From Patescibacteria group bacterium (lineage in GTDB: Bacteria; Patescibacteriota; Microgenomatia; PFEM01; JAHIFH01), in the NCBI GenBank assembly GCA_035529375.1, contig DATKWU010000018.1, forward strand, positions 47,956-111,955: a stretch of 64,000 bases of DNA, given 5' to 3'. The notes below the pieces were generated by a model. It searched no databases and had not been told where the DNA came from. It was given only the letters and a program-made list of their open reading frames with translations. Positions 4,018 to 56,089 of the stretch are shown in pieces; position 1 is the stretch's first letter, and each line of letters starts with the position of its first letter. A program made the position numbers and the translations under genes.

Positions 4018-4078
4018 CTTGAATTAATTCTAACATAAATTAGTTTAATCTTGTTAGAACTGCTATAATAAAATCAAG

Positions 4079-4100
4079 CTGCCTGGTTGGCAGTTTTTTT
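4079..4100 (+). terminator. Terminator-like hairpin (CTGCC-tggtt-GGCAG) followed by T7 run, 7 nt upstream of the 4107 ATG
   Basis: Seen directly in sequence. Its location between divergent genes and inside the putative 5'-UTR suggests an attenuator or leader structure rather than an end-of-operon terminator. Confidence 0.4.
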
Positions 4101-4106
4101 AGATAA

Positions 4107-5459
4107 ATGAGAGATATTGATTTTGGACCCCAAGAAATTCCTAACCAAAATAACCAAGGAGAAACTCAACCCTCCAGAGATGTAGACAAGCGTCTTTTAG
4201 TAAGCTCTTATGAGATTTTTAAGAAATTTAAGGAATTACCTCACAGGTTTGCTTGGCCAAGAAGTTTAGAAAGAGGTCTTAAAGGAGAAGTTTATGAGTA
4301 TCTCCAAGATTTTTGTGATGTCATGAACTTAGCTTCCGAAAGTGATCTGGGAGCTTTCCCACGATTTCATCAAGAAAGAGTTCAATTTTTAAATAAACTT
4401 GCAGATCATATAAAAAGGAGGCGAAGATATCGACTTCTTAACGATTTTACTGAAAGAGTATCAGTCTTATCAGATCTTTATCCTGAAATAGCTAGCATTG
4501 TAACCATGGGGAATTTTGACCTCTACCTTCTTCTTTGTGATGAAGATCAGATTTTAGCTGGATCTAAGAATGGTCTTTGGTATAAGGAAATTAATCTCGA
4601 AAACCATTCGCCAGAAGAAAAAGAATCTACTTGGGAATCAATTGTACTTCAAATGAGCGCTTTTTTTCGAGGTTTAGGTAGATCAGCTATTGAGCTTGTT
4701 CCTGACCATTTTATTACCAGAGAAGACCTTAAGGAACTTAATCTACCTCAACCAGCCAAATCAATTGAAGAACTTTTAGAAGAAGCTTACTACCGCCAAA
4801 GATACACGGTTTCGCCTGAAGGGGCTGAAGTCCGCCTTCAAAACGCTGGTGACCTTAAAACAATAGTCGTTAAACAAATAGGTAATATGATTATGGCCAA
4901 AGCCGTTACCACTCTAGGAGAAGCGTTGGTTATTGTTGATCTTGATCGAGCGACAGCTATTTCACCGGAAATCATTGTTAAAAAAGAACCAGTTTTAGCT
5001 AATATCCTGGCTGAAGTTTATCGTGACTTAGTCGTTGCTGTCGAAATCCCCAGTTCTGGCAAAAAAAGAAAAAGAGCTTCAGTAGGAATTCCAACTGAAG
5101 AAAGAACTCCAAGAGAACCAACTTATATTTATATCCCCAGAAAAAGATGGGTAAGAGGCGAAGAAACAGAAATGCCAATTCGGACTCCCTATGAAGGACC
5201 TCGAAGACCAAGGCAGTTTCACGAAGTTACTGGCCATAAGCGTCACGTCAACATGACCGAAGCACACCGTTTGGCCTTAATAGAATATGAAGAAGAAACC
5301 GGTCTGAGAATTTTAGATTTCCTTCCTGAGGGTTGCACTTTCGTTCGTCGCCACTTCAGAGGTGGTACAGAAGCAGACATCAAAAACCTTCCTACTTTTA
5401 TTAAAATAAAAATCCAAACCAAATTAGAAGAAAGTCTAAACCTTCCAGATCTTCAATAA
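4107..5459 (+). CDS. Hypothetical protein (450 aa), Arg/Lys-rich C-terminal region
   Basis: Long intact ORF with no recognisable motifs and no canonical SD. A possible -10 TATAAT lies at about 4063-4068. Confidence 0.5.
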   Translation: MRDIDFGPQEIPNQNNQGETQPSRDVDKRLLVSSYEIFKKFKELPHRFAWPRSLERGLKGEVYEYLQDFCDVMNLASESDLGAFPRFHQERVQFLNKLADHIKRRRRYRLLNDFTERVSVLSDLYPEIASIVTMGNFDLYLLLCDEDQILAGSKNGLWYKEINLENHSPEEKESTWESIVLQMSAFFRGLGRSAIELVPDHFITREDLKELNLPQPAKSIEELLEEAYYRQRYTVSPEGAEVRLQNAGDLKTIVVKQIGNMIMAKAVTTLGEALVIVDLDRATAISPEIIVKKEPVLANILAEVYRDLVVAVEIPSSGKKRKRASVGIPTEERTPREPTYIYIPRKRWVRGEETEMPIRTPYEGPRRPRQFHEVTGHKRHVNMTEAHRLALIEYEEETGLRILDFLPEGCTFVRRHFRGGTEADIKNLPTFIKIKIQTKLEESLNLPDLQ

Positions 5460-29197: not shown

Positions 29198-31543
29198 CTA
29201 AGGGGGTATTTCCTGCCAAGTGTAAGAAGGGGTAAAGAGCACTGAAGGAGCAGTCATCAAAAAGTCTGGTCGGTAAACAAATTTCTCTGCTGGTCTTGTT
29301 CTGTTCAAATCCTCTCCTAAATCTCTTGCCAACTCAAAAGACTGAGCCACAAAAACTCCTTCACCCACAAACTGAACATCGTTGCCTTCACCAACTTTAT
29401 CAACCTCAAACTCTTTATCAGTAATAAAGACTCCTTCCACTTGAGTTACTGTTTCCGCTACCTTGATTTTTCCTGAGGCAATAATGGCTAAAAAGCCATT
29501 AACATCAAGATTACTATCAATATTCACCTCATTATCAACTAAGATAACAATTTTTGTTCCCTCAGGAATACTCCAACCATCAACCGTTAAAGCATCAGCA
29601 GTGTAGTAAACTCCAGAATCAGATGGTAAACCACCACCGTAATCTTCTTCAGGTGAACCCAAAAGTTCATAAAAGTAATTGAATCTCTTCCGAGAAAATT
29701 CTGTATTGGCTAACCAGCCTTCCACAGAGACGTTCCCTTCCCCCCAAGGATTATCTCCCAAAGTTTCTTTATGAGAAACCACGCCTGGAGTGCCTCCCTC
29801 ACCCGCTAAACAAAAATTATCATCCTCTCCAGGTAAATCAGAATTAATACTCTCTTGAGAATGAACATCACCTTCTTGAGCCTGAAACCAAGACCCAGCC
29901 GCCTTAGTCAAACCAATATTGATTGTCTTAGTTTCTCCTCCCTCAGTTAACATCACTTGATTAGTCTCATCACCCTCATCATCACAATAAATCGGATCAG
30001 AATACTCTCCAGGAAAAGCAGTCATCATCACTGTATGCAATTGATCTATAGGTACCTCAAAGGAATAATCAGGATCAGGAGTATCTGTACCATAACCGGC
30101 AATTTGAACGGTACCCCCAGAAACGGTTTCCCCTAATTCAGAACAGGAAGATCCTTCAAAAACCGTCCCCTGAATAGTTCCAGTTGGAGCAGGATAAAGA
30201 ATTGAATCGGCACAATAACTCCATTCAGCTGTTTTAAACTTAACTCTTGCCATTACCGAATTTTCGCCAGGATTAAGCGTTAAAGGATAACTGAAATTTC
30301 CACCCTCAGGAATATCCATAACTGACCCCCAGGTAGATCCACTATCAATACTTAATTGAATTTTGCCATCTTCAACCGCTCGAAAGTGCCATATTCCCAC
30401 TTTATGGGTATACATCGCATCATCTACGTAATAAACAAGAGAATTATTAATAACTTCAGCTTCTGCTTCATGGACGTCATCTGTTTTTAGTAAATTAAGC
30501 TCCATATCATAGAGCTCAAAACTATTAACATTACAATCATTTTCAGGATTTTCTTTTTCAGATATCTGGGAGTAAACAAAGAAATATTTCGTTCCTCTAT
30601 CCATCTGAATTGTTCGCTTCCCTGAACTGGTGTAACTAGCGATGATTGCATTTGCCCTTAAGCCATCACTAAGATGCCAACGCATTCCTCGGGAAAAATT
30701 AAGACTACCGTGGCAACCTGTCTTGTTACACATCCTAAAATCAACACTGAAAGTAAAAGATTTGATCACATAACCAGTTGGAGCAGTAACCTTAAGAGCA
30801 GCTCCACACGGTTGTTCGCCGTCACATATTATGTGCTCAGTAAATCTTAACCGACTGTCTCCCGCAAGGTGTCCAAATTTTCCAGGACCACAAGTTAACT
30901 CACAATCATAGCAGGCGTGACTAGAAGGAGCACAAGTAGTTCCAAAAGCAGGATAACAACCGCGACAGGGTTGACCGGCACTTATACAACTCCTTCTTTT
31001 ATACAAACAGCCATTAATTACTTGACCAAACCGGCAAACTTGGTCACCACCTCCTTCTGTGTAGCCATTACCACCCGGTCCAATACCGTAATACTGAAAA
31101 AGATTCCTGAAAGCGTTACCATGATTACCAACATTCCATGTTTCAAGATAGCCCTCATCCCTTAATTGATTGTCACTCTTGCCCTGAATTCGAGGAGCTA
31201 CTTCAATAAAACAGACAGCGTCTCTTTCAGACCCTTTATTATGTACGGCAAAATCATTGGCGAAAAAGGTTTCTTCACCATCAACCGAAAGATTGTAAAC
31301 TTCAACCGGCTCTTGTTTGTATTCAAGTTTAGTGATTTGCTCAGGCACCAAACCCTCTTCTCCCTTAACAAAAACCACATCGCCAATATTTAATTCCTTA
31401 ACCTGAATAAATCCAGCCTCTTTAATCTCCGGTCCAGGAATTTCCACCACCTCTTGCGCATGAATGGTTTTAGAGAAGACGAAGAATAAACTAATTCCTA
31501 ATATCCAATATCCAATATCTCTAACCGAGAGCAGTTTTTTCAT
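29198..31543 (-). CDS. Large secreted Cys-rich protein beginning with a Hint C-terminal (blocks F/G) segment
   Basis: Hydrophobic N-terminus, then GFIQVKELNIGDVVFVKG...VYNLSVDGEETFFANDFAVHN, then ~680 aa of Cys-rich extracellular sequence. Confidence 0.6.
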   Translation of the reverse strand: MKKLLSVRDIGYWILGISLFFVFSKTIHAQEVVEIPGPEIKEAGFIQVKELNIGDVVFVKGEEGLVPEQITKLEYKQEPVEVYNLSVDGEETFFANDFAVHNKGSERDAVCFIEVAPRIQGKSDNQLRDEGYLETWNVGNHGNAFRNLFQYYGIGPGGNGYTEGGGDQVCRFGQVINGCLYKRRSCISAGQPCRGCYPAFGTTCAPSSHACYDCELTCGPGKFGHLAGDSRLRFTEHIICDGEQPCGAALKVTAPTGYVIKSFTFSVDFRMCNKTGCHGSLNFSRGMRWHLSDGLRANAIIASYTSSGKRTIQMDRGTKYFFVYSQISEKENPENDCNVNSFELYDMELNLLKTDDVHEAEAEVINNSLVYYVDDAMYTHKVGIWHFRAVEDGKIQLSIDSGSTWGSVMDIPEGGNFSYPLTLNPGENSVMARVKFKTAEWSYCADSILYPAPTGTIQGTVFEGSSCSELGETVSGGTVQIAGYGTDTPDPDYSFEVPIDQLHTVMMTAFPGEYSDPIYCDDEGDETNQVMLTEGGETKTINIGLTKAAGSWFQAQEGDVHSQESINSDLPGEDDNFCLAGEGGTPGVVSHKETLGDNPWGEGNVSVEGWLANTEFSRKRFNYFYELLGSPEEDYGGGLPSDSGVYYTADALTVDGWSIPEGTKIVILVDNEVNIDSNLDVNGFLAIIASGKIKVAETVTQVEGVFITDKEFEVDKVGEGNDVQFVGEGVFVAQSFELARDLGEDLNRTRPAEKFVYRPDFLMTAPSVLFTPSYTWQEIPP

Positions 31544-31544: not shown

Positions 31545-32168
31545 TTATTTTAATATTTCACTTACCTTCGCCTGTAAACCAGTAATCAACCGATAAGTCA
31601 GCGTATTTGAAAGAATATCTTTAAATTTATCAAGTGTTGTTTGGAGTTTGGTGCTTGAAGCTTGGTTATTCTCGCCTTTAATGGCGAGGAATGGGTGTTC
31701 TCCCGTCACCTTCACCTTCTTCCCACTTTCAGTTTCCAGCCCATAGTAGCCTTCCCGAATTGTTTTAGTCACATTAGAAACCGTGCCTTCTTTTATTTCC
31801 CCTGTCTCCGGATTAAACGAAGAAACAATCTCACCCGGTTTCAAGTCTTTAATTTGCTTCGTCTCCCCCTTCTGCTCTCCTGCTCTTTCACCCTCCTGTC
31901 CTAAATTAATCTCCGTTTCCCCAGTAAAACAAGGAGCACCACATGAAGAACAGGGGCAACAATATCCATCGGACATTTCGCAACCAACACACAAACAGTC
32001 ACTCCAGGAACAACCATCCCCCATTTGACCCACCTCAATAATGCAACGTCCACATTCACAAGAAATGCGTCCAGTTGAAGTACAAACATCCCCATAAACA
32101 CTTTTTGCCGTAAACATTAGGACACAAACGGTGAATAGCAAAACTAAAATTAAAGTCTTAGTTCTCAT
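31545..32168 (-). CDS. Secreted Cys-rich protein ending in a Hint N-terminal (blocks A/B) segment
   Basis: Signal peptide, ~50-aa Cys-rich module, then CFTGETEI...TGEHPF running to the C-terminus. The stop TAA is followed by G and then the ATG of the next gene. Confidence 0.6.
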   Translation of the reverse strand: MRTKTLILVLLFTVCVLMFTAKSVYGDVCTSTGRISCECGRCIIEVGQMGDGCSWSDCLCVGCEMSDGYCCPCSSCGAPCFTGETEINLGQEGERAGEQKGETKQIKDLKPGEIVSSFNPETGEIKEGTVSNVTKTIREGYYGLETESGKKVKVTGEHPFLAIKGENNQASSTKLQTTLDKFKDILSNTLTYRLITGLQAKVSEILK

Positions 32169-32769: not shown

Positions 32770-32838
32770 TAGTTAAATTTAAACAAATTTACTACTAGAT
32801 GTCAACAACTCGGAAAAAAATTAACAAATCATTCAGCC

Positions 32839-34353
32839 TCAATGATTATATCTCATGTATTCTCCTATAAATTGGGGCCAATATAAATCAACCATCGCCA
32901 TTATCTCATCTTGAGCTCTTTCATCAAATTGAAGTAACTGAGCACTAAAGAGTTCATCCCATGATAAATGATTCCCTCTTACTTCTTCGTAATCATCCGT
33001 CATAAGGCAAGAACCGCTAGCCATCGAGTTAAGCAACCCTTTAAATGCGTCTTTACCTCCCTCTTTCAGGACACCATAAACATAAACAACCGGAATGAGG
33101 CGAACCGAAGGCCCTTCTGGATAGAGAACTTCAAGCCCTTTCTCTCTCAATATTTTTAAAGCAAAATCCTCCACAGCCTCTTGGGTGGCATGAACAAATT
33201 TCGATTCTGGAGTTCTCGTCGCCCAATCAACACCTTCAATACCTGGGGCTCTTTGGGCTTGAGGGAAGGAGTGAATTGCTTCATGGATATATTGGACTAT
33301 GAAATCAGCTGCATATTTATTATAATCCGAAACTGGTTTTGCATAACTATCTCCAAATATCATGACGCTGTTTGGATAACCCAAGCCTGCCCCAACTGTA
33401 CTCCATCCAGGAAGAATCAACGAACTAAGAATTTCCTCTTCCTCCTCAGGTAGTTGAGGAATAACTCCATCACGAAACAAAGCAGGGTTAAGATTGTCTC
33501 TAAACATTTCATTGATAGACCTTGAGATTGGTATAATATCAGAAACCACCTGTTTCATAAATGGACTCCTGATTCGTTCTTCGTGGGAGGCTAATGATAG
33601 GTATAAACCCTCTTCTGTTGGAAAAGGAACCGAATCAATGATCTCCCCACCTCTTCTTTCTCCATTTAAATAGGCATAAATCCAGAAATCCCTAAAAGGC
33701 CCAGTTCCTGGTTCTATGTTGCCTTTTCCTCGATTGACTACCTCAAAGAAATTGATAACTCTCTCATTGAGTCTCGAATCTAGCTCGGGATCAATCCGGT
33801 CCACTAATCCTTTGGGGATAACAAATTCACCCGGCCCGGAAGTCAAAGAAATTCTACATATCGCGTTGATCTCGGGGGACAGGATCTCCGCTTCTCCCCC
33901 CACTCCCGCTCCTTCAGGATTGACAATATTTAGTTGACCACTTCTGATTTCATCCGCGGTAGGGGTGACGACATTTAAAACAACATTTTGTTCTTGATTG
34001 ATTGCTTTAATTGTTGCCTCAAACTCCCCCCCTTCTCTATCTTCTGGAGCAGGAAGAATTCTTGGAGTTGGGCCTGATTCGGAGGCTGAAGAAACACCAA
34101 TACTAGCCGCTCCCTTAATTTGAGCAGCCCCCAGGGCAGCAAGAACGAGACCCGTAGTAACTGCTTGACTTCTCGATATTCGCTTTCTGGGTTCTAATCC
34201 AGTTAACTGTTCCTCAGATCCCAACCCCTGCCTTCTTCTCTCCCTTTCCTCCCTAATTCCTCTACGACTGGCTACCTGACTCTCTCTTAGCGCTTGTTTA
34301 TATAATGGACCGCCGTTAAGCTCGTCGGTTTCTTTGCCCATGTTTTCTTCCAT
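32839..34353 (-). CDS. Membrane-anchored HExxH (putative zincin) protein
   Basis: HEAIH motif near the C-terminal third and a TM anchor around residue 70. The ORF track start at 34374 is a TTG. The ATG at 34353 (MEENMGKE) has a GGGAG SD. Confidence 0.5.
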   Translation of the reverse strand: MEENMGKETDELNGGPLYKQALRESQVASRRGIREERERRRQGLGSEEQLTGLEPRKRISRSQAVTTGLVLAALGAAQIKGAASIGVSSASESGPTPRILPAPEDREGGEFEATIKAINQEQNVVLNVVTPTADEIRSGQLNIVNPEGAGVGGEAEILSPEINAICRISLTSGPGEFVIPKGLVDRIDPELDSRLNERVINFFEVVNRGKGNIEPGTGPFRDFWIYAYLNGERRGGEIIDSVPFPTEEGLYLSLASHEERIRSPFMKQVVSDIIPISRSINEMFRDNLNPALFRDGVIPQLPEEEEEILSSLILPGWSTVGAGLGYPNSVMIFGDSYAKPVSDYNKYAADFIVQYIHEAIHSFPQAQRAPGIEGVDWATRTPESKFVHATQEAVEDFALKILREKGLEVLYPEGPSVRLIPVVYVYGVLKEGGKDAFKGLLNSMASGSCLMTDDYEEVRGNHLSWDELFSAQLLQFDERAQDEIMAMVDLYWPQFIGEYMRYNH

Positions 34354-34453
34354 CTTTCTAAAAATCTCCCGCAATTCGGAGGATGTTAAACTACTTCAAA
34401 ATTCCACGAAAAGATTCAATTTTGGTTTAAAAATCATTTGGGCAATTGAAATT

Positions 34454-34462
34454 ATTATATCA
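34454..34462 (-). promoter_or_regulatory. Extended -10 promoter box TGATATAAT (minus-strand sense) for the 32839..34353 gene
   Basis: Plus-strand ATTATATCA, followed by a conserved ~95-nt 5'-UTR module. Confidence 0.45.
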
Positions 34463-34512
34463 CTCTTATTAGGTGAGGGGAATCTCTAGCCAAGGTGTCC
34501 CTATTCCCATAA

Positions 34513-35214
34513 TTACCTCAATGATTTTTTCTCTCGGAGAATATTATAGTCAATATATCTATTTGCAAATCCATCACAATATATTTCTTTGTCTTCATCT
34601 CCAATTTTGACTCCTTGCAACTTAAGCACCTCGTGGCCTAATTCATGGAGGAGAGTCCACTCTAATCTTTTTATACCAATTAGCTGATTGTATTTTGAAT
34701 AATCTCTTTTACCACTATTTTCCGGCTCTGCTAAAGATGCCGAAACACTTAGCCACCTGGTTTTACCCTCTCCGCTTTCAATCTCTCGAGCTATTCCCAA
34801 AGCAAATTTTCCTTCATTTCTACCACTTTTGATTGGGATTAAATCACGATAGAAGATAAACATTAACGGCATTAGTTCTCTGCAATCAACACCGCTATCT
34901 TCTAAAATTGCCTGTATTGTCTTATCATCAACTGTATAGTCTAGTCCAGGGTCCATACTGAATTCTTTAAAATCGCACAAACTCTCTGGGGTAGGAGGGG
35001 AAATTATTGATTCAGCGCGACCTGGACGGATAGACGACTTGGGGGACAAATTTTCCAAAACCCCATTTCGCTTTAGTAAATATGAGGCTCCTTTTATCAT
35101 CAAGATTCCAGTTGCTGCAGTTCCAACTATTAGAAATTCTCTCCTAGTCAATGGTCTTCTTCTTTTTTCTTGGCGGATTGAAATTGACTCGTTTTTACCT
35201 TGTTCAATTACCAT
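34513..35214 (-). CDS. Tat-signal secreted HExxH (zincin-like) protein
   Basis: Twin-arginine motif (TRREFLIVGTAATGILM) and HELGHE near the C-terminus. GGAGGA SD 10 nt upstream. Confidence 0.55.
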   Translation of the reverse strand: MVIEQGKNESISIRQEKRRRPLTRREFLIVGTAATGILMIKGASYLLKRNGVLENLSPKSSIRPGRAESIISPPTPESLCDFKEFSMDPGLDYTVDDKTIQAILEDSGVDCRELMPLMFIFYRDLIPIKSGRNEGKFALGIAREIESGEGKTRWLSVSASLAEPENSGKRDYSKYNQLIGIKRLEWTLLHELGHEVLKLQGVKIGDEDKEIYCDGFANRYIDYNILREKKSLR

Positions 35215-35312
35215 TATAAAAAATCCTCCGTTTTTCGGATGATATTAAACTACTTTATTTATCTACCAAAAGATTCAATTTTGGTTTAAAAATCATTTTG
35301 ACAACTATGAAA

Positions 35313-35321
35313 ATTATACCA
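35313..35321 (-). promoter_or_regulatory. Extended -10 promoter box TGGTATAAT (minus-strand sense) for the 34513..35214 gene
   Basis: Plus-strand ATTATACCA, followed by the same conserved 5'-UTR module as upstream of the neighbouring gene. Confidence 0.45.
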
Positions 35322-35367
35322 CTTTTTAGCAAGAATTTCAGACTAACAACTCTGGTATACTAAAATT

Positions 35368-36848
35368 ATGAAGTTCAAACAACTAAAATCTCTTTTCCTC
35401 TATCTGACCGCCTTTCTTTGCGGCGTTGCCGGCATGATAGTGGAACTGACCGCCGTTCGTTTAGTCGCCCCTTTTTTCGGCTCATCGATGGAGGTCTGGG
35501 CAACGATTATTGCTTTGGTGATGACTGCCCTCGCCTTAGGCTACTTCTTTGGTGGCCAGCTTTCAAAGAGGATCAAGAAAATAGATTCGGTTGTTTATTT
35601 GATTATTGCTTCTGCCGGCTTGTTAATCAGCTTTTCCTATCTTTTTGTCGAGCCTATTGTTTCTTTTACTTCTCTCTCCTTACAATTAGCCAAGTTTTCC
35701 CTTTCTTTCAAAACCTTTTTAGTCGTCCTTTCTCTTTTCTTTCTGCCTGTTTTTCTTCTCGGCTCAATCTATCCCTTAATTATTGCCAGCTTTAAAAGTA
35801 AGAAATCAGGCCAGGCCGCGGGCCTTATTTTTGCTATTTCCACTGCCGGCAGCATCCTCGGCACTCTTCTTCCTTCTTTTGTTCTTATTCCCTTAATCGG
35901 CACTAAATTAACTTTTTTCTTAACCGGTATTGCTTTGGAAATCATTGCCTTAATTGGTCTACCCAAATTCCAGAAAATTATCCCGGCCTTAATTTTAATC
36001 ATCCTCCTTTTTAACTTTCCCAAATCCCAAAAGCTTTCATTTTCACCAAATAATGAGGTTATTTATCAAACCGAATCTCTTTATCAAGAAATCAAGGTTA
36101 TCAAAAGGGGAAAGATTTATCTTCTTTCCTTAGGTCCAAATAGTTTTATCAGCTCTTCTTATTCGCCTTATTCCTATTTAACCGATGGATGCTTTGATTA
36201 TTTCAACCTTTTGCCTTTGTTGAGAAACGACAAAAACCTAGACGTTCTTATCATTGGCTTAGGTGCTGGTACTATTTCTCGCCAGTACCAGCATTTCTTT
36301 TCTAATCAATATGATCTCAAAATCGATGGGGTGGAAATTGATCCTGAAGTAATCAAGGTGGGCAAAAAATATTTTGAATTAGAGCAACCTAGCTTAACCA
36401 TCTATCAAATGGATGGCCGGGCTTTTCTTAATCAAACTGAAAAAAAATATAACGTTATCATTGTCGACGCCTATGCCCGCCAAACCTATATTCCTTTTCA
36501 TTTAGCCACTGAATAGTTTTTTCAGGAAGCTAAAAATCATCTTCAAGAAAAAGGTATCCTTGCCTTTAATATTGCCACTTCTTCCCAGAACAGCTTCCGT
36601 TTTCAAACAATCAGTCAAACAGTAAAATCGGTTTTCAACTACACTTATTCTTTTTCAGTTGATAATGGTAATAGCTTAATTTTTGCTAGTAATGAATCTA
36701 TAAAGCCACTAAAGAATATTAATTTAGAGGAAGTTCCTGATGAGCTAAAAGCATTAATCCAAAATCTGACTCTTCAATTCTTAAAACCGACTAATCTTGA
36801 TAAGCCAAATTTAATCCTCAAAGACGACACTGCTCCAACAAGACTTTA
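35368..36848 (+). pseudogene. Membrane-bound spermidine synthase-like protein (polyamine aminopropyltransferase fused to N-terminal polytopic membrane domain) interrupted by a single in-frame TAG at 36514-36516
   Basis: About 7 TM helices, then a PABS domain (VLIIGLGAGT, IDPEV, DGRAFL, VIIVD, HLATE-stop-FFQEAK..ASNES) that continues in the same frame for 110 more codons to TAA at 36846-36848. Confidence 0.6.
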
Positions 36849-38367: not shown

Positions 38368-40443
38368 ATGAACAAGACAATTTCCCTTTTGCTTAATCGA
38401 ATTATTGAATCAAGTTTTTATCTTCTTTTTTTCCTGGTTCCTTTGATCCTGACTCCCTGGAACTACGAGCTTTTTGAGTTTAATAAAATGATCCTCGCCT
38501 ATCTCCTAACAGTCGTTATTATTGCTGCCTGGATTGTTAAAATGATTACTGAGAAAAAGATTATCTTTCGTCGGACTATCCTTGACCTTCCTTTAATCCT
38601 TTTTCTTGGTTCCCAAATTATGGCTACTATTTATAGTATTGATCGTCATACTTCCCTTTGGGGTTATTACAGCCGCTTCAATGGCGGTCTTTTCCCCACC
38701 ATCAGCTATCTTCTTCTTTACTGGGCCTATGTCAGTAACTTTAATAAAGAAAAAACCCTGACCACCATTCGCTTTACTCTAGCTTCCACTATCCTCGTCT
38801 CTCTTTATGGCCTTGCTGAACATTTTGGTATTGATGCTCAATATTGGGTCCAAGAAGTTCAAATCAGAGTTTTCTCCACTTTTGGCCAGCCTAATTGGTT
38901 AGCCGCCTGGCTAGTGGCACTCTTACCCCTCACCTGGGCAATGATTCTTCTAAAAAAACAATTAATCTTCAAAAAATTTTCTTTTCCTTATTTTGGTTAT
39001 GTCTTAACTACCATCTTTTTCCTTTGTCTTCTTTACACCAAATCCCGCTCTGGCTTGATTGGTTTGGCAGTGGCCTATCTGGTTTTCTGGGGTTTAACTG
39101 GTTTTCTTAACCGTCAAAAGATAAAAGCATTAACTAAACCCTTTATCAGCCTTTCTCTTCTTCTCCTAGTTCTAACCTTCCTGACCGGCACTCCCTGGAC
39201 CCCTCATCTTGGTCAAATCAAAGAAAAAATAAAAGGAACAACTCAAGAAGCAATCATCTCGGCCGAAGCCCAACAACCAGGCTTGCTTATTAGTGAATCT
39301 GGTGATATCCGCAAAATTGTTTGGCAGGGCGCCCTGGAAATCTGGAAAAACCACCCGATTTTAGGCACCGGCGTTGAAACCTTTGGTTACGCTTATTATT
39401 GGTACCGCCCCCGAGCCCATAATGATGTTTCGGAATGGGATTTACTCTACAACAAAGCCCATAATGAATACCTAACTCTTTTAGCCAACACCGGCTTAAT
39501 TGGTCTCTCTACCTACCTAATCTTAATCGGCACTTTTCTTTTCTGGTCTCTCAAACAAATCATCATTCACTTAAAAAAAGCCAAAGAAACCACTCTCTTA
39601 GTGACGGCTCTCCTCGCTGGTTATATCAGTATCCTCATCACCAACTTTTTTGGCTTTTCGGTAGTCCCGATTAGTCTCCTTTTCTTTCTTATTCCGGCCA
39701 TAGCTATCACTCTCGTCAGTCAGTCAGAAAAAGAACCAAAGCCTAAAAAACAAATTATAGAAAGCAAACAATGGGCCGTGATTATCCTCATCTCTCTTCT
39801 CTCTCTAGGAGCCATCATTTATCTCATCAAATTCTGGTATGCTGATACCCGCTTTGCTTTGGCGGAAAAACTTAATGAGGGAGCTAAATATGATCAGGCC
39901 TATAATGAATTGAAAACCGCTATCAGCCTTCATCCCAGTGAACCCTATTACCGCGCCGAAATGGCTCTCTCTCTGGCTGGTCTAGCCGAATTAGCCCAAG
40001 AAGCGGATGACGCCTCGCTTTCCGCCCAACTAGTTGATTTAGCTATTGCTGAATCAGACCAGGCTTTAAAAACCAGTCCCTATCACCTTAACTTCTGGAA
40101 AAAACGGGCCAAGATGTTTATTAGTCTGGCCTTAGCCAATCCTCACTATGAACAGGCAGCCCTTGAAACTCTCCTCAAAGCCACGGACCTCGCTCCAACT
40201 GATGCCAAAATTCAATACAATCTAGCTCTCCTTTATTCTCATCTTGGTCAAAAAGAAACCGCCATTAAAACCCTGGAACACACCATCGAATTAAAACCCA
40301 ACTACGCTGACGTCCGCTACGCCTTAGCTCTTTTTTATGAAGAAAATAAGCAAAGAGAAGAAGCGAGAAAACAATTAAACTATATTCTGGAAAAGATTAA
40401 TCCGGCAGATACCCGAGCCAGCGACAAACTCAAAACCCTTTGA
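38368..40443 (+). CDS. O-antigen ligase-like (Wzy_C) polytopic membrane protein with C-terminal TPR repeats
   Basis: AHNEYLTLLANTGLIGL motif, ~10 TM helices and C-terminal TPR-like repeats. 4-nt overlap with the downstream radical SAM gene. Confidence 0.7.
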   Translation: MNKTISLLLNRIIESSFYLLFFLVPLILTPWNYELFEFNKMILAYLLTVVIIAAWIVKMITEKKIIFRRTILDLPLILFLGSQIMATIYSIDRHTSLWGYYSRFNGGLFPTISYLLLYWAYVSNFNKEKTLTTIRFTLASTILVSLYGLAEHFGIDAQYWVQEVQIRVFSTFGQPNWLAAWLVALLPLTWAMILLKKQLIFKKFSFPYFGYVLTTIFFLCLLYTKSRSGLIGLAVAYLVFWGLTGFLNRQKIKALTKPFISLSLLLLVLTFLTGTPWTPHLGQIKEKIKGTTQEAIISAEAQQPGLLISESGDIRKIVWQGALEIWKNHPILGTGVETFGYAYYWYRPRAHNDVSEWDLLYNKAHNEYLTLLANTGLIGLSTYLILIGTFLFWSLKQIIIHLKKAKETTLLVTALLAGYISILITNFFGFSVVPISLLFFLIPAIAITLVSQSEKEPKPKKQIIESKQWAVIILISLLSLGAIIYLIKFWYADTRFALAEKLNEGAKYDQAYNELKTAISLHPSEPYYRAEMALSLAGLAELAQEADDASLSAQLVDLAIAESDQALKTSPYHLNFWKKRAKMFISLALANPHYEQAALETLLKATDLAPTDAKIQYNLALLYSHLGQKETAIKTLEHTIELKPNYADVRYALALFYEENKQREEARKQLNYILEKINPADTRASDKLKTL

Positions 40444-42788
40444 TGAAAAAAACCCTGCTCGCCAAAACATTAAAGAATAAAAAAGTTGCCTGTTTTACCT
40501 GCCAACGCCGATGCCAAATCTCACCAGACCAATGGGGTTTTTGTCAAACTAGGATTAATAAAAACGGAACCCTCAAATCAGTCATCTATGGCGTCGTTTC
40601 TTCAGTTAACCTTGATCCGATTGAAAAAAAGCCAGTCTTTCATTATAAACCAGGCTCAAATTGTCTTTCTCTTGGGACTTATGGTTGTAATTTCAAATGT
40701 GCTTTTTGTTTTCTTCCTGACACAAATATTGCTACAGAAAAAGGTATTTATAACCTTAAAAAACTTTTTGAACTTAATAAAAAACCGCGTGTTTATAGTC
40801 ATACCGGAAAACTAAGAAAAATTAATAAAGTTTTTCGTCACCGATATGATGGAAAAATTATAACAATAAAACCTTATTACGCCCCTCAAATAGAATGTAC
40901 TCCTTCACACGAATTTTTCGTCACAACTAATTCTCAAGATAATAAAATTCAAAAAATAAAAGCTAAAGATTTAACTAAAAAGCATTATCTGCTAATTCCT
41001 AAAAATTATCCTTTTTCAAAACTGTCCACTTTTGATCTTAACAAGGTTCTTTACTCTTCAATAGGAGAATATAGAAAATCAAGAAAGACTTCATACAACG
41101 ATATCTTAAAAATTCTCGAATTAAGTCAAAATGGAACCACATCTAGAATTATAGGAGATACTTTTAATCTCCATCCCGCGTATGTTAGAACTTTACGTTC
41201 ACGATTGAAAAATAAGAAAATCATTCAGAAAGAGATTGTTTTTGGAAAAAACCTCCTAATAGAAAAAAATGGAGGAATTAAATTTAAGACTGAAAAACAA
41301 CCATCACTTCCTCGTTTTATTGCTCTTGACAAGAATCTTGCTAAACTTCTGGGTTATTATTGCGCAGAAGGATGGGTAGTAAAAAATAAATCACGTCCTA
41401 ATTCATTTCAAATAAGTTTTGCTTTCTCAAAAAAAGAAAGACATTATGCTGAAGAGGTAAAGAAGTTAATTGTAACCATTTTCGGGATCAATCCAAAAAT
41501 CGTGACGCGAGAAACGACAGTCACGGTAGAAATCGGTAAGTCAAGTTTAGCTCTTTTCTTCAAAAATCTTTGTGGTTCGACAGCCTTGAAAAAAAGAGTC
41601 CCAGCAGAAATTAATCAATCCCCAAGAGAAATTATTCAACAATTCCTAGAAGGATATATTAATGGCGATGGTTGGCGAAAACCTGACGAAATAGCAATTA
41701 ATACTGTCTCTCCTACGCTCGCTATTGGAATATATTGGCTGGTCTTAAAACTAGGCTTTTTACCACGATTTTATAAGTGGGAACCATCCATTACTAAAAA
41801 AATCGGTACAAGATTAGTCAAACAATCAACTCTCTATTACGTCAAATGGAAAATTAAAAAACCAACTACTCCTAAAGCTAAAGCTTCGACCAAATATATA
41901 GAAAAAAATGGTTACTATTTCATACCAATAAATAAAATCAATAAAAGAAAGTATCGCGGAGAAGTTTTTAATCTTGAAATTGAAAAAGATCATTCGTATT
42001 TAGCAAACTTTATTGGTGTAGGAAATTGCCAAAATTGGGATATTAGCCATACCAACGGGGCTTCGATTAACCTTGACAACCAAAAACTTCTTTCTCCAAA
42101 AGAAGCTATTAAAATGGCGAAAAAATCAGGCGCTGAAGGAATTGCCTGGACCTACAACGAACCGGCTATCTGGCTAGAATACTCTCTAGATGGCGCCAAA
42201 CTCGCCCAAAAAGAGAAGATTTACACTTGTTGGGTGACTAATGGCTATGCCACTAAAGAAGCGATTGATAAAATTGCTCCCTATCTCAACATTTACCGAG
42301 TTGACCTGAAAAGTTTTGATAATAAGCTCTACAAAAAATTAATTGGTGTCCCCCAAGCCAAAGGGGTTTTCGAAGTCACCAAATACGTTCATAATCAATA
42401 TCCCGAGATTCATCTTGAATGCGTGACCAACATTATCCCCACCTGGAATGATTCAGAAAATAATCTCAAGAAAATAGCTCACTGGATTGTTAAAAACCTG
42501 GGCAAAAAAACTCCCTGGCACGTCACCCGATTCTTTCCCTACGCTGACCTGACCAATGTCCCCCCTACGCCACCAGAAACTCTGCTCAAAGCCAGAAAAA
42601 TAGGGATGAAAGAAGGTTTAGAATTTGTCTATATTGGTAACCTACCAGTTGATGAAGAAGACGATACCTTTTGTCCTAAGTGTCATAACTTAGCCATTAG
42701 AAGAACTGGCTACCGAACCGAAATCCTAGCCGTTGATAAAGACGGTCACTGTTCTGACTGTGGTGAAGATTTGAATATCAGAATGTGA
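40440..42788 (+). CDS. Radical SAM enzyme of the AmmeMemoRadiSam-system type (PFL-activating-enzyme-like) containing a 440-aa intein
   Basis: N-extein ends GCNFKCAF and the C-extein starts CQNWDISH. This rebuilds CNFKCAFCQNW (CxxxCxxC-QNW) with a spliced length of ~342 aa. A C-terminal Cys pair is also present. Confidence 0.75.
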   Translation: MMKKTLLAKTLKNKKVACFTCQRRCQISPDQWGFCQTRINKNGTLKSVIYGVVSSVNLDPIEKKPVFHYKPGSNCLSLGTYGCNFKCAFCFLPDTNIATEKGIYNLKKLFELNKKPRVYSHTGKLRKINKVFRHRYDGKIITIKPYYAPQIECTPSHEFFVTTNSQDNKIQKIKAKDLTKKHYLLIPKNYPFSKLSTFDLNKVLYSSIGEYRKSRKTSYNDILKILELSQNGTTSRIIGDTFNLHPAYVRTLRSRLKNKKIIQKEIVFGKNLLIEKNGGIKFKTEKQPSLPRFIALDKNLAKLLGYYCAEGWVVKNKSRPNSFQISFAFSKKERHYAEEVKKLIVTIFGINPKIVTRETTVTVEIGKSSLALFFKNLCGSTALKKRVPAEINQSPREIIQQFLEGYINGDGWRKPDEIAINTVSPTLAIGIYWLVLKLGFLPRFYKWEPSITKKIGTRLVKQSTLYYVKWKIKKPTTPKAKASTKYIEKNGYYFIPINKINKRKYRGEVFNLEIEKDHSYLANFIGVGNCQNWDISHTNGASINLDNQKLLSPKEAIKMAKKSGAEGIAWTYNEPAIWLEYSLDGAKLAQKEKIYTCWVTNGYATKEAIDKIAPYLNIYRVDLKSFDNKLYKKLIGVPQAKGVFEVTKYVHNQYPEIHLECVTNIIPTWNDSENNLKKIAHWIVKNLGKKTPWHVTRFFPYADLTNVPPTPPETLLKARKIGMKEGLEFVYIGNLPVDEEDDTFCPKCHNLAIRRTGYRTEILAVDKDGHCSDCGEDLNIRM
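40707..42026 (+). mobile_element. Intein with LAGLIDADG homing endonuclease domain
   Basis: Block A CFLPDTNIATEKG, block B TPSHEF, LAGLIDADG-like motifs (LLGYYCAEGW, FLEGYINGDGW) and block G VFNLEIEKDHSYLANFIGVGN followed by a +1 Cys. Confidence 0.7.
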
Positions 42789-50432: not shown

Positions 50433-50768
50433 TCATTCCTCTTTTTTATTACATTCATAAGTACCTTCTTTAAGAAGATGTGATTCTGCGGCAATTCTAT
50501 TATCTTCGCCGCTCAAAAGGGCATATTTAAAGTAACAATCTTCATTTACCAAATTCCTTTTTAAACAGCTATTTTGTTCGTTTGGCGAAAGATGTTCAAG
50601 ATAGCGTTTTCTAAGATGGAAGGCTCTGCCGACATAAACTCGAGTCATTTTGTCCTTTTCCCCATCATTTCTTAACACCTTATAAATCCCACCAATTTCT
50701 GGTACCTTGTAGGAATTACCCGTTGTGTAGCGAAAACTTGTCGACCATTTTAGATTTTGACAACTCAT
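50433..50768 (-). CDS. Stand-alone GIY-YIG nuclease domain protein
   Basis: GIYKV...YVGRA...R...EH motif pattern. 111 aa. GGAGGTG SD. Confidence 0.6.
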   Translation of the reverse strand: MSCQNLKWSTSFRYTTGNSYKVPEIGGIYKVLRNDGEKDKMTRVYVGRAFHLRKRYLEHLSPNEQNSCLKRNLVNEDCYFKYALLSGEDNRIAAESHLLKEGTYECNKKEE

Positions 50769-53917: not shown

Positions 53918-53980
53918 ATTTTTATTATAACAAATGTTCTTAGAAAAACTGACTTTTAAATCTTTGCTATAATCAAATCA

Positions 53981-54601
53981 ATGTTAGTCTTTGCTTGTCT
54001 CTCGCCTCACCCACCTCTTATCCTGCCTTCAGTTGGTTCAGAAAAAGATAGGCAAGAAGTTAAAAAAACGATTACCTCTCTAGAAAAACTAGGCAAACAA
54101 CTAGCTAAGATCAAACCAGATTGTCTGATCATTACCTCACCCCATCCTGATTGGGGTTTTAATGTTCCTCTTCATTATCTAGCCAAAAATCTTCATGGAA
54201 TTGAAGTTAAGGCTCATTTAACTGACCTTGAATCACCTGAAGTTCACTTTAATAGAGGCAAAGAATTAATCAAAAACCTCAATTACATTAAGAAACTAGC
54301 TTGGGTTGCTTCTGGGGATATGAGCCACCGACTGAAAGAAGATGGTCCTTACGGCCTCCATCCCTCTGGTCCAAAATTTGATAAGGAATTCATTAATCTC
54401 CTTAAAAGAAAAGATATTGGTAGTCTTTTAAACATAGATCCCAAGCTCATTGACGAAGCCGGTGAATGTGGCTTAAGAAGCTTTTGTCAACTATTAGGTG
54501 CCCTAGAAGGTGCCAAGGTCAAATGGCAATCAGAAATTCTCTCTTATGAAGCCCCTTTTGGTGTGGGTTATCTTGTGGCTAATTTTAAAATAAAAAAATA
54601 A
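53981..54601 (+). CDS. Class III extradiol dioxygenase / Memo-like (LigB superfamily) protein
   Basis: CLSPHPP, IITSPH and SGDMSHR motifs. 206 aa, short relative to Memo1. Confidence 0.5.
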   Translation: MLVFACLSPHPPLILPSVGSEKDRQEVKKTITSLEKLGKQLAKIKPDCLIITSPHPDWGFNVPLHYLAKNLHGIEVKAHLTDLESPEVHFNRGKELIKNLNYIKKLAWVASGDMSHRLKEDGPYGLHPSGPKFDKEFINLLKRKDIGSLLNIDPKLIDEAGECGLRSFCQLLGALEGAKVKWQSEILSYEAPFGVGYLVANFKIKK

Positions 54602-55508: not shown

Positions 55509-55540
55509 CTTCTAAGCCTTAAATCTGCTAAAATTTCCTT

Positions 55541-56089
55541 ATGGCGATTAAAAAAATTATTACGGTCCCTAATTCCAAACTTCGTCAAAAATCAAAACCA
55601 GTTAAAAAAATTGACAAAAAAATAAAACAACTGGTTAAGAATTTAATTGAGACCGCTAAAGCCGCCGAAGAACCTAAAGGTGTCGGCCTTTCTGCTATCC
55701 AAATAAATAAGCCAGTCAGGGTCTTTGTCATTAAAAGAGGTAATAAATTTACTCCCTTTATTAACCCCAAAATTACTTGGCAATCTAAGAAAAAACTCTC
55801 CCAAGTTTTAGAAAAAGAAAAGCTGCTGTTTGAAGGTTGTCTCTCTATCCCTGGCTTTTATGGTTTTGTTGACCGCCCTTATGCGATCAAATTAAAATGG
55901 CAAGATTTAGAAAGAAAAAATCATCAAGAAAAGTTTGCAGAAAAAGAATCCACTTTTGTTCAGCACGAACTCGACCATCTTAACGGGATTCTTTTTACTG
56001 ACCACATTCTTAAACAAAAAGGAAAAATCTTTAAAATCGAAAAAGACGAAGAAGACAACGAAGTCTTTGTGGAAGTTGAAATCGAATGA
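55541..56089 (+). CDS. def: Peptide deformylase
   Basis: GVGLSAIQ, EGCLSIPG and HELDHLNG motifs. Confidence 0.9.
   Translation: MAIKKIITVPNSKLRQKSKPVKKIDKKIKQLVKNLIETAKAAEEPKGVGLSAIQINKPVRVFVIKRGNKFTPFINPKITWQSKKKLSQVLEKEKLLFEGCLSIPGFYGFVDRPYAIKLKWQDLERKNHQEKFAEKESTFVQHELDHLNGILFTDHILKQKGKIFKIEKDEEDNEVFVEVEIE

Follow-up and report, generated by a model that had tools for sequence, protein, structure and literature searches.

Two Neighboring Genes Share a Promoter and Leader Module

What is the ~100-nt module that stands ahead of each of two neighboring genes for putative secreted HExxH proteins in a patescibacterial genome? Patescibacteria (CPR) are tiny, mostly uncultivated, host-dependent bacteria that are usually assumed to have little gene regulation. 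We analyzed a 64-kb stretch of one contig (hereafter, the window) together with seven related loci, and we conclude that the module most probably codes for a leader peptide of 13 amino acids, with a hairpin downstream. Our main reading, to which we assign a probability of roughly 0.55, is that each module forms a complete promoter plus the regulatory 5′ leader of a ribosome-dependent attenuator. The leader has the look of a hitherto undescribed case of ribosome-controlled gene switching in a poorly known group; in the literature searched, we came across no account of a leader-peptide or attenuator element from Patescibacteria/CPR. If the reading is right, it provides a concrete switch of ~100 nt before a lineage-specific family of secreted HExxH proteins.

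A repeat search of the window returned an ungapped match of 108 nt with 78% identity on the minus strand (34360–34467 versus 35219–35326), and the mean column identity of the two modules in a MAFFT alignment was 83%. Within the repeat lies an exact 31-mer, AAATGATTTTTAAACCAAAATTGAATCTTTT, with two copies in the window (34409–34439 and 35268–35298, minus strand) and zero matches in 100 shuffles. We call the copy that precedes gene 2 (34513..35214) leader A and the copy that precedes gene 1 (32839..34353) leader B. Their parts, including an upstream open reading frame (uORF) and two hairpins (HP1 and HP2), are as follows.

35313..35321, minus strand: extended −10 element of leader A, TGGTATAAT; TGnTA(T/A)AAT stands in the same place in 9/9 leaders
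35255..35296, minus strand: candidate leader-peptide uORF of leader A, ATG to TAA, MIFKPKLNLLVDK and stop; open in 9/9 leaders
35265..35285, minus strand: HP1 of leader A, inside the uORF, ACCAAAA-TTGAATC-TTTTGGT; from the RNAalifold consensus and single-sequence folds
35245..35257, minus strand: stop cluster of leader A, TAAAGTAGTTTAA, with stops in all three frames, that of the uORF included
35223..35243, minus strand: HP2 of leader A, ATCATCCG-AAAAA-CGGAGGAT; ΔG −5.8 to −6.0 kcal/mol, one A.G mismatch
35215..35222, minus strand: U-run and linker of leader A, TTTTTATA, between HP2 and the ATG
34513..35214, minus strand: gene 2, coding for an orphan protein of 233 aa that has HELGH and a twin-arginine-like signal, TRREFLI
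34454..34462, minus strand: extended −10 element of leader B, TGATATAAT
34396..34437, minus strand: candidate leader-peptide uORF of leader B, ATG to TGA, MIFKPKLNLFVEF and stop
34406..34426, minus strand: HP1 region of leader B, ACCAAAA-TTGAATC-TTTTCGT; one C.C mismatch, weaker here
34386..34398, minus strand: three-frame stop cluster of leader B, TGAAGTAGTTTAA
34364..34384, minus strand: HP2 of leader B, ATCCTCCG-AATTG-CGGGAGAT; ΔG −6.2 to −6.5 kcal/mol, one C.A mismatch
34354..34363, minus strand: U-run and linker of leader B, TTTTAGAAAG, ahead of the ATG
32839..34353, minus strand: gene 1, 504 aa, with an export module at the N terminus and a gluzincin-like domain (HEAIH) at the C terminus

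A preliminary description of this DNA had claimed a ~95-bp repeat with an identical 31-bp core, an extended −10 box in each module, and a terminal hairpin with an SD-like 3′ arm. All of this was borne out: the repeat and its exact core are those given above, the box is conserved in every leader of the expanded set, and the 3′ arm is SD-like in eight of the nine.

The Leader Is Old and Conserved ahead of One Gene Family

Did the repeat arise by recent local copying? On other metagenomic contigs, seven further leaders built alike stand ahead of related HExxH genes, which brings the total to nine; a full HMMER search recovered 17 relatives. Leaders A and B are 77% identical to each other, and leader B is 82–87% identical to the leaders from other genomes. 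That leader B resembles foreign leaders more closely than it does leader A makes the duplication an old one, and the homologous leaders ahead of related HExxH genes on those seven contigs show that the module is not a recent local copy. These results contradict a recent local duplication without conservation elsewhere, the outcome that the preliminary description had named as fatal to its own proposal. As for the further copies that it had suggested looking for, nhmmer and a covariance model (R1) found no third copy in the 64-kb window and none elsewhere in the retrieved loci. Additional weak covariance-model matches (E = 0.33–9) were discarded as noise, and four matches from a 21-mer core scan of GTDB species genomes lacked flanking similarity and were attributed to chance. 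A scan of viral contigs with two patterns gave no match.

How strongly is the leader constrained? Leaders of the main group (group 1) are 77–94% identical in pairwise comparisons; the mutual identity of the downstream proteins is only ~30%. Between the window and L019, an adjacent conserved gene matches at only 50% of its third codon positions (i.e., near saturation). A 45-nt core is invariant in group 1, synonymous positions included, with a single exception (AAA to AAG in L029). Comparison of these sequences supports the view that the module is a promoter and 5′ leader under strong selection.

At some point a tandem duplication did take place at this locus, because the 3′ ends of both window genes carry an 18-nt motif, GAGA(T/A)A(T/A)AATCATTGAGG, that is absent from the relatives. 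That the module is a functionless footprint of a recent event of this kind is, in our view, scarcely credible: the two copies resemble each other less than leader B resembles its foreign counterparts, no similarity is left to detect between the two coding regions, and the leader is conserved across contigs with near-saturated synonymous sites.

A Short Open Reading Frame in the Invariant Core

What does the invariant core contain? It is a 13-codon ORF—MIFKPKLNL(L/F)V.. and then a stop—that the preliminary description had overlooked. Across the leaders the uORF, 13–17 codons long, sits in the interval that separates the −10 box from the main ATG. Its own frame (frame 0) is free of internal stops in 9/9 leaders; frames 1 and 2 hold one to four stops each in all nine. 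Eight of the uORFs start with ATG and that of L027 with GTG, 9 nt downstream of an in-frame ATG. A 1-nt indel shifts the uORF in L026 and L029, where it ends at the last TAA of the three-frame stop cluster. The uORF stop lies 1–13 nt from the HP2 stem, a distance within or at the edge of the footprint of a terminating ribosome.

The first 10 residues are conserved as M-I-[F/I]-[K/R]-x-K-[L/I]-[N/K]-hydrophobic-[L/F]. A diverged subgroup (L025, L027, and L028) has a similar peptide from other codons (MIIRLKINFF.., VIFRLKIKIF..), with changes from AAA to AGG (K to R), TTG to ATT (L to I), and CTT to TTT, ATT, or GTT; the L027 peptide is hydrophobic and basic (RLKIKIFKVKK). Between-group BLOSUM62 sums over the first 11 codons are 6–25 in frame 0 and −6 to 11 in the other frames. 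Several observations count against a coding interpretation. The estimated chance of a 13-codon open frame in A+T-rich sequence is ~0.3 per independent lineage, conservative-looking changes arise easily in F/I/L/K/N-rich peptides, and the variable sites of the diverged subgroup (6, 4, and 5) are not enriched at third codon positions. Judged on sequence, a conserved leader-peptide ORF would explain the invariant core better than a riboswitch aptamer or an sRNA target would, and the earlier suggestion of a riboswitch or sRNA target is not supported.

Promoter and Initiation Context

How would such a uORF be read? The extended −10 boxes (TGGTATAAT at 35321–35313 and TGATATAAT at 34462–34454) are of a type found 6–9 nt ahead of many ATGs in the source genome, at leaderless genes. 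The uORF ATG lies 15–19 nt past the box, compared with those 6–9 nt, and no SD was found before it; the upstream sequence is GCCCAA-ATG or CTGCC-ATG, which is not purine-rich. Its initiation mode is puzzling, because it lacks an SD and, with the ATG this far from the −10 box, is not leaderless. The element thus poses a question for translation more generally, namely how an SD-less, non-leaderless mini-ORF gets read where leaderless mRNAs dominate.

Only 8–10 nt separate HP2 from the main ATG. No separate promoter fits into this interval, so the main gene is transcribed through the element. The same spacing bears on the idea that the element is a separate small gene, for either an sRNA of ~90 nt or a peptide of 13 aa and with a terminator of its own, that merely happens to lie upstream of the peptidase gene. 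A promoter, a terminator-like end, and a hydrophobic, basic peptide would suit a gene of this sort. We consider it improbable, given the lack of room for a promoter behind it and the restriction of the element to the front of this HExxH gene family (9/9), with no copy elsewhere in the 64-kb window or the retrieved loci.

We also considered a second in-frame ATG/GTG (MEEK-M) as the true start, with GGAGG as its SD. This arrangement fits most members and was rejected, as L027, L032, and L033 lack the SD or the second start. Moreover, the −10 box of leaderless relatives lies 8–11 nt before the first ATG, and the first ATG was accordingly kept.

A Maintained Hairpin before the Main Start Codon

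Is the hairpin next to the main start codon maintained? HP2 is present in 9/9 leaders, with ΔG from −6 to −16.6 kcal/mol; the stems are G+C-rich and reach −10 to −17 kcal/mol in seven of them, and only the two window copies are weak (about −6). Its 3′ arm in leader A, GGAGGA, is the probable SD of gene 2. The stem top differs in L025 (CGCC/GGCG), and downstream of HP2 come U4–6, AGAAA, and then the main ATG. Paired cells make up 91.5% of the HP2 alignment, against 44–61% when the partners are slid (weak covariance-model matches excluded). The covariation check that the preliminary description had called for gave a partial answer: pairing is kept with changes on both sides, at two pairs that both come from L019 alone, which leaves the formal covariation thin. 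A natural deletion in L024 removes the uORF ATG, the 3′ half of the uORF, and the 5′ arm of HP2 together and retains the promoter and the GGGGATTTTAAGAAATA-ATG segment.

HP1 is A-U rich and weak, and the diverged subgroup has CUAAAAA-loop-UUUUUAG at the equivalent codons. Could its arms be half-sites in DNA rather than an RNA stem? A dimeric transcription factor might bind an inverted repeat downstream of the −10 box (ACCAAAA-N7-TTTTGGT, or AAATGATT-N15-AATCTTTT) and repress by roadblock, and inverted repeats do occur at +20 to +50 from the −10 box in all leaders, a position suited to a repressor. Yet the half-sites differ by subgroup and stay complementary (ACCAAAA/TTTTGGT versus CTAAAAA/TTTTTAG), which is typical of an RNA stem and not of half-sites that a protein recognizes; conservation extends over ~95 nt up to the ATG, with the second, covarying hairpin included; and the neighboring genes differ among L017, L019, and L026, with no regulator gene consistently linked. 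We give a DNA operator little chance.

Might the leader instead work as a structured RNA that is not translated? In this case it would be a riboswitch-like RNA, a protein- or sRNA-binding leader, or a thermometer. The working parts would be HP1, HP2, and the invariant bases; the open frame would have no role of its own, and gating of the SD or termination of transcription would fall to HP2 alone. The invariance of synonymous positions in the group-1 core points to constraint at the nucleotide level, and the diverged subgroup retains HP1, built from other bases and in a shifted register. In the folds, moreover, the strand AAUCUUUUGG enters two mutually exclusive pairings, one of which buries the AUG, and the uORF has neither an SD nor a leaderless start. 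Such an RNA, however, would leave unexplained why a start codon and an open frame occur in 9/9 leaders, why the stops fall just before HP2, and why the other frames are closed. Whole-leader folding of the two window leaders was no better than shuffled (z = +0.25 and +0.84), and the leader has no multi-helix junction and no pocket-like architecture. Rfam gave no match at the gathering score in the window and the seven related loci and, at E ≤ 10, only chance snoRNA/lncRNA matches in the leader region, in keeping with the earlier statement that the element was not recognized as a known one. We regard a structured RNA as possible but rather unlikely.

Two specific versions of that idea were rejected. 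For a riboswitch, the multi-helix architecture is lacking and the folding z-scores are not significant. In RNA thermometers, a hairpin of marginal stability pairs the SD with a strand that is U-rich (fourU) or reads U(U/C)GCU (ROSE); the pairing strand of HP2 is CCUCC(G), not UUUU or UYGCU, the hairpins of the relatives reach the −10 to −17 kcal/mol given above for seven of the nine leaders, and the conserved 45-nt block would be superfluous. The thermosensor suggested earlier is unsupported on the same grounds.

A Candidate Ribosome-Dependent Attenuator

How might the parts work together? The anatomy of the leader, its conservation ahead of one gene family, the open frame, and the maintained HP2 are observed; in proposing an attenuator, we infer that the uORF is translated, where transcription begins, which way the switch works, and what signal it answers. 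Transcription would start ~7 nt past the extended −10 box. The first part of the leader would encode the 13–17-codon uORF with the A-U hairpin HP1 inside it; the 5′ arm of HP2 would mimic an anti-SD (CCUCC), and its 3′ arm would present an SD-like GGAGG or GGGGG with the main ATG 10–12 nt downstream. By default, HP2 would form and the peptidase gene would be off, through SD masking, weak intrinsic termination, or both. Once a ribosome arrived or paused at the uORF end, it would cover the 5′ arm, open HP2, and turn the gene on, and HP2 would stay closed if the ribosome arrested earlier on the conserved peptide or if the uORF were not initiated.

The best reading has the attenuator acting on translation or on transcription. 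SD masking remains a live mechanism because the 3′ arm of HP2 is SD-like in 8/9 leaders, and HP2 with its U-run is equally compatible with transcription attenuation. The U-run is only 4–6 nt long, and a scan with the intrinsic-terminator consensus left HP2 unflagged both in the window and in three relatives. When the nascent leader was folded without the 3′ arm, no conserved antiterminator partner was found for the 5′ arm. The preliminary proposal of shared post-transcriptional control stands in part: the conserved leader, the maintained HP2, and the SD-like arm agree with it, but it had missed the uORF, and transcription attenuation fits equally well. A hairpin followed by U7-AGAUAA-ATG, with no uORF, also occurs in the window at 4061–4109, ahead of an unrelated gene. 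Because of this instance, HP2 and its U-run may be a general start-region design in this organism and not a switch.

Comparison with Known Leader Peptides

How does the proposed attenuator compare with known ones? As in these systems, a short ORF lies in the leader of the same transcript, and a hairpin lies downstream within reach of a ribosome on the uORF. We found neither an initiation signal of the uORF's own nor an alternative pairing for antitermination or anti-SD release, although the MsrDL type needs no such pairing. The MsrDL peptide, from the leader of the macrolide resistance gene msrD, has six amino acids (MYLIFM) and a strong RBS; the peptides here have 13–17 amino acids of unrelated sequence and no SD. 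Furthermore, the regulated gene here encodes a secreted HExxH protein rather than a resistance factor, and the U-run is shorter. What the two share is a very short uORF followed directly by a modest hairpin and a U-run (−7.9 kcal/mol there versus −6 to −17 here). For msrD, it is the ribosome stalled at the end of the uORF that itself obstructs the Rho-independent terminator of −7.9 kcal/mol, and the portion of the source consulted describes no separate antiterminator structure in the msrD leader (PMC10314930).

The erm leaders likewise place a leader peptide upstream of a hairpin that holds the SD of the main gene. In erm, a stalled ribosome frees segment 2 for a 2:3 antiterminator; no 2:3 pairing was found here, and this arrangement was rejected. 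No resistance gene lies downstream here, unlike in erm. All nine peptides carry [K/R]-x-K at residues 4–6 (KPK or RLK), resembling the RLR of ErmDL, although a +X+ match of three residues in a K-rich peptide could be chance. The order of promoter, short uORF, terminator-like hairpin, and structural gene is also that of vmlR of Bacillus subtilis (PMC9226507) and of the trp, his, and leu attenuators. By analogy with vmlR and the classical attenuators, HP1, lying inside the uORF, could make the polymerase or ribosome machinery pause. Unlike those systems, the leader has no mutually exclusive antiterminator and anti-antiterminator helices and no regulatory codon run; Leu, Ile, Val, and Phe are scattered through the leader peptide.

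A bolder version of the attenuator, which we advance tentatively and consider doubtful, would make the conserved peptide a nascent-chain sensor: an arrest peptide built around a +X+-like core, whose ORF would be initiated on a short leader with no SD, in an organism where most mRNAs are leaderless. Its cue would be a small molecule or the translational state of the cell (a macrolide-like compound, say, or nutrient status on the host surface), and it would gate secreted zinc peptidases used on hosts. The gated genes are proposed to form a fast-diverging, secreted, partly LysM-bearing cassette of episymbiotic bacteria. An arrest peptide of this kind would add a new sequence class to the small set of known ribosome-sensing peptides.

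The Regulated Proteins

What kinds of proteins would the leader control? The two had been described earlier as extracellular zincins. The motifs are present (HEAIH at residue 357 of gene 1 and HELGH at residue 190 of gene 2), but for gene 2 the name "zincin" would follow from the motif alone. No similarity between the two proteins was detectable.

Gene 2 encodes a signal that reads T-R-R-E-F-L-I and then VGTAATGILMI. Its sole Pfam match is a subthreshold hit to the Tat-signal family (E = 0.022; 14.6 bits against a cutoff of 24), and twin-arginine-like motifs also occur in relatives (SRRRFLK in P0013 and SRREIL in P0019). We found no homologs of gene 2 in a word-indexed protein search, which returned each protein itself only, and there was no NCBIfam or PDB sequence match. 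A single-sequence AF2 model was unusable (pLDDT 36).

The gene 1 product is a putative peptidase, with HExxH on the active-site helix within a thermolysin-like fold. In gluzincins, the third zinc ligand (Glu) follows ~18–25 residues or more after HExxH; here, His388 is nearly invariant 27 residues past the motif. Identity to gluzincins of MEROPS clan MA(E) (M1 aminopeptidase N, M61, and LTA4H) is only 5–11%. There was no Pfam or NCBIfam match, and a Foldseek search of the PDB returned nothing significant. Gene 1 differs from the clan MA(E) gluzincins in its conserved N-terminal export module (a hydrophobic segment and SSASESGPTP), and some relatives differ further in carrying LysM inserts. Across the HExxH family, the conserved leader and export module are joined to very different C-terminal domains, and because of this combination, we suggest that the family comprises effectors of host or cell-wall interaction under diversifying pressure.

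A conserved leader before the HExxH genes

How far does the resemblance between the starts of the two HExxH genes extend? A repeat search of the window returned 34360-34467 and 35219-35326 as a direct repeat of 108 nt with 78% identity (mean column identity of both copies in a MAFFT alignment, 83%), and the window has exactly two copies of the 31-mer core, where 100 shuffles gave none. The duplicated module with a shared 31-bp core, placed before both genes by the preliminary description, is real; both copies have the extended -10 box said to open them, and the HELGH and HEAIH motifs of the downstream proteins were confirmed. In gene orientation each copy runs from the -10 box through the invariant core, a hairpin (HP2), and a run of 4-6 U to the start codon.

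Parts of the two leaders in the window
35321-35313 (-), extended -10 box of leader A, before gene 2 (HELGH): TGGTATAAT
35243-35223 (-), imperfect hairpin HP2 of leader A: ATCATCCG/CGGAGGAT
35214 (-), main start codon of gene 2
34462-34454 (-), extended -10 box of leader B, before gene 1 (HEAIH): TGATATAAT
34384-34364 (-), imperfect hairpin HP2 of leader B: ATCCTCCG/CGGGAGAT
34353 (-), main start codon of gene 1

A word-indexed protein search matched the gene 1 and gene 2 products only to themselves, each annotated as a hypothetical protein, and a 21-mer of the core gave only chance matches in 185,579 species genomes. Among metagenome contigs, the same 21-mer found two true homologues, loci L017 and L019. 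A full HMMER search with gene 1 as query then returned 17 relatives, whose context revealed five further loci with the leader (L025, L026, L027, L028, and L029, the last with the same leader as L030) and one deletion variant (L024). Three distant members (L031, L032, and L033) have no leader, and their -10 box lies 8-11 nt before the ATG. L019 and the window share synteny (Wzy/TPR protein, divergent fused MFS/spermidine-synthase-like gene, leader, HExxH gene, “MQLPA(I/V)REK” protein, and Hint-domain protein), with a single HExxH gene in L019 in place of the window's two.

From -10 box to ATG, the group-1 leaders (window A and B, L017, L019, L026, and L029) are 77-94% identical, while conservation upstream of the box is poor. 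Leader B is closer to the foreign leaders (82-87%) than to leader A (77%). The proteins behind these leaders are ~30% identical overall and ~50% in a 95-residue N-terminal module, and third codon positions of the adjacent conserved gene are just 50% identical between the window and L019. These figures remove the recent local duplication, with no conservation elsewhere, that the preliminary description named as one refutation; the sequence comparisons indicate a leader under strong selection, not a recent copy. To a duplication without function we give small weight.

A candidate leader peptide

Is the conserved core translated? It starts with ATG in every leader except L027, which has GTG and an in-frame ATG 9 nt upstream. 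The frame set by this codon, a candidate upstream ORF (uORF), is free of internal stops in all nine leaders, every one of which has 1-4 stops in frame 1 and likewise in frame 2.

Predicted uORF peptides (*, stop codon)
Window A: MIFKPKLNLLVDK*
Window B: MIFKPKLNLFVEF*
L017: MIFKPKLNLLVKI*
L019: MIFKPKLNLLVEI*
L026: MIFKPKLNLLVEKYKVV*
L029: MIFKPKLNLLVDRYKLV*
L025: MIIRLKINFFKIDY*
L027: VIFRLKIKIFKVKK*
L028: MNIRLKIKVFRVTY*

The diverged subgroup (L025, L027, and L028) still has M-I-[F/I]-[K/R]-x-K-[L/I]-[N/K]-hydrophobic-[L/F] despite only ~65% nucleotide identity to group 1, and BLOSUM62 sums between the groups, taken across the first 11 codons, range from 6 to 25 in frame 0 and from -6 to 11 in the others. 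L026 and L029 have a 1-nt indel toward the 3′ end that changes the reading frame; their uORF runs on to the final TAA of the conserved TAAAGTAGTTTAA cluster, where all three frames meet a stop. The L029 uORF differs by a single synonymous substitution (AAA to AAG); within the diverged subgroup, which is small, variable sites are evenly distributed among codon positions. A 13-codon open frame is not rare at 70% A+T. Taken together, the open frame, the retained peptide, and the indel pattern favor a translated leader peptide, a candidate short of proof. A main weakness of this reading is that the uORF lacks a Shine–Dalgarno (SD) sequence and its ATG lies 15-19 nt behind the -10 box, vs. 6-9 nt for leaderless genes here. 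To a free-standing small gene we assign small weight. Residues 4-6 read [K/R]-x-K in all nine peptides, a likeness of three residues to the RLR of ErmDL and a lead only.

Many genes in the window lack an SD and have an extended -10 box (TGnTAWAAT, TAGAAT, or TATACT) only 6-9 nt ahead of the ATG (e.g., 53965-53983 (+), 55526-55543 (+), 53932-53915 (-), 48846-48829 (-), 11875-11855 (-), and 35351-35370 (+)), so leaderless mRNAs are apparently in wide use in this genome. SD-like sequences precede some other genes, such as those with ATGs at 50768 (-) and 47520 (-).

Hairpins and a proposed switch

RNAalifold predicted two hairpins from four sequences. The first, HP1 (ACCAAAA-UUGAAUC-UUUUGGU), falls within uORF codons 4-11; its equivalent in the diverged subgroup is CUAAAAA-loop-UUUUUAG, with the register shifted by one. 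In several group-1 leaders the HP1 3′ strand can pair instead with CCAAAUGAUU, burying the uORF AUG. HP2, the hairpin of the preliminary description, is followed by U4-6, AGAAA or a variant, and the main start codon. Its two window copies are predicted at -6.0 and -6.5 kcal/mol, and the other leaders range from -10.4 to -16.6 kcal/mol (L019 stem, GUCCCGAG/CUCGGGAU; L025, 10 bp topped by CGCC/GGCG). When the nine leaders were aligned by model fitting, 91.5% of HP2 cells paired vs. 44-61% with slid partners, and two pairs changed on both sides, both from one sequence, lend modest covariation support. We looked for a conserved alternative pairing of the HP2 5′ arm and found none. Owing to the short U-run, HP2 went uncalled when the window, L019, L025, and L027 were scanned for consensus terminators, and the Rfam search proposed earlier matched no known family.

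The two window HP2 copies are mismatched at one shared stem position through different mutations (5′-arm C to A in copy A and 3′-arm G to A in copy B), which weakens both to ~-6 kcal/mol vs. -10 to -17 kcal/mol in relatives; this could be parallel tuning or drift.

Between the uORF stop and the HP2 stem there are 12-13 nt in leaders with 13 uORF codons, 4-5 nt in the diverged subgroup, and 1 nt in leaders with 17. A ribosome with a stop codon in its A site covers ~10-13 nt downstream, so one at the uORF stop would reach or cover the HP2 5′ arm. In L024 (1-117), the promoter and first ~30 nt are recognizably homologous to the leader, a mutation has removed the uORF ATG (AAACAAT), and a deletion from uORF codon 5 through the HP2 loop joins the sequence directly to GGGGATTTTAAGAAATA-ATG, so the uORF was lost along with the closing arm of HP2. 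For the L024 protein, P0003, the true start probably lies 12 nt upstream of the annotated one (ATGGGAGAGAAGATG, MGEKM).

We propose, with a probability of roughly 0.55, that the leader is a uORF attenuator. HP2 would form by default, and its SD-like 3′ arm, serving the first ATG at 10-12 nt, would be masked, some termination would occur at the U-run, or both. Translation of the uORF to its end would open HP2 and permit expression; earlier ribosome arrest on the conserved peptide, or failed uORF initiation, would leave HP2 closed. The earlier suggestion of posttranscriptional control with a hairpin over an SD-like sequence is retained here, but it overlooked the key feature, the conserved candidate leader peptide. 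A structured RNA that is not translated would share both hairpins, and an open frame with a retained peptide is no part of it; we regard it as unlikely. A DNA operator receives small weight.

We would class the uORF attenuator among the leader-peptide attenuators, a known kind. The nearest documented logic is that of MsrDL: in the published account (PMC10314930), translation of a very short uORF leaves the ribosome stalled at its end, where it stands in the way of a Rho-independent terminator of -7.9 kcal/mol. The vmlR leader likewise has a uORF, but together with antiterminator helices (PMC9226507). Our literature search found nothing comparable described for Patescibacteria.

One unrelated gene, at 4107 (450-aa product, no Pfam match), has a similar start at 4061-4109 (+) with no uORF: TGCTATAAT, 9 nt, hairpin CTGCC-TGGTT-GGCAG, T7, AGATAA, and ATG. 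HP2 plus U-run could therefore be a general start-region design in this organism, a further weakness of the attenuator reading, and the hairpin/U-run/AGAnAA arrangement may be a general 5′-end design, such as a stabilizer plus an AU-rich landing site.

The genes behind the leaders

What do these leaders precede? The gene 1 and gene 2 proteins have no detectable similarity to each other. HExxH is present in every member checked (window genes 1 and 2, L017, and L019), and LysM domains in 5 of 13 family members. Leader-bearing members share an N-terminal module (charged region, hydrophobic segment, and SSASE(S/L)GPTP), and their C-terminal parts are often unalignable, so that the family looks like a conserved leader and export module combined with predicted catalytic domains that diversify. 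Gene 2 is an orphan, a putative zincin by its motif alone, and its candidate twin-arginine motif falls below the Pfam threshold and is convincing by eye.

Neighboring features

Both window HExxH genes end in AATCATTGAGG, in different reading frames (32837-32854 and 34516-34533); the motif is absent in relatives and is probably a tandem-duplication footprint. At the gene 2 end (34511-34529) it is complementary at 16/19 positions to the uORF B start (34429-34447), 63 nt downstream. At the gene 1 end (32806-32848) it forms a local hairpin, AAUCAUU-GAGGCUG-AAUGAUU, then UGUU (four bases) and AAUUUUUUU; the 3′ arm resembles the uORF start, and the region is possibly a vestigial third leader. In their 5′ part (CCTGCC-ATG-AATATTAGGCTAAAAATTAAGG; L025 2908-2935, L027 133-160, and L028 362-390), the diverged leaders look like the beginning of the conserved downstream gene (ATGCAGCTGCCTGCCATTAGAGAAAAAATATTAGGG..TTAAGG; window 32769-32720 (-)), a likeness that may be chance or may hint at leader origin.

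Downstream of the HExxH genes, 31545-32168 (-) encodes a Cys-rich secreted protein ending in the N-terminal part of a Hint/intein-like domain. The next gene, 29198-31543 (-), follows after 1 nt; its 781-aa product opens with a signal peptide of its own, after which comes the C-terminal part of a pretoxin-HINT domain. These genes, like L019 8012-8584 and L024 2147-2785, may represent a Hint module that is split or interrupted, beside a diversifying secreted-protein family and reminiscent of polymorphic-toxin loci.

The fused MFS/spermidine-synthase-like gene has an in-frame TAG at 36514-36516 (+) (HLATE*FFQEAK), behind which the frame stays open ~110 more codons; the 490-aa L019 homologue is open at this site (HLATQEFIQVAK). 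The TAG could reflect a pseudogene, a sequencing error, or recoding. Farther along, 40440-42788 (+) (L023 2427-4772) encodes a 782-aa radical-SAM protein with precomputed Pfam matches to Intein_splicing and a LAGLIDADG homing-endonuclease domain; its L019 counterpart has 354 aa, and the longer protein is probably an intein-containing radical SAM enzyme.
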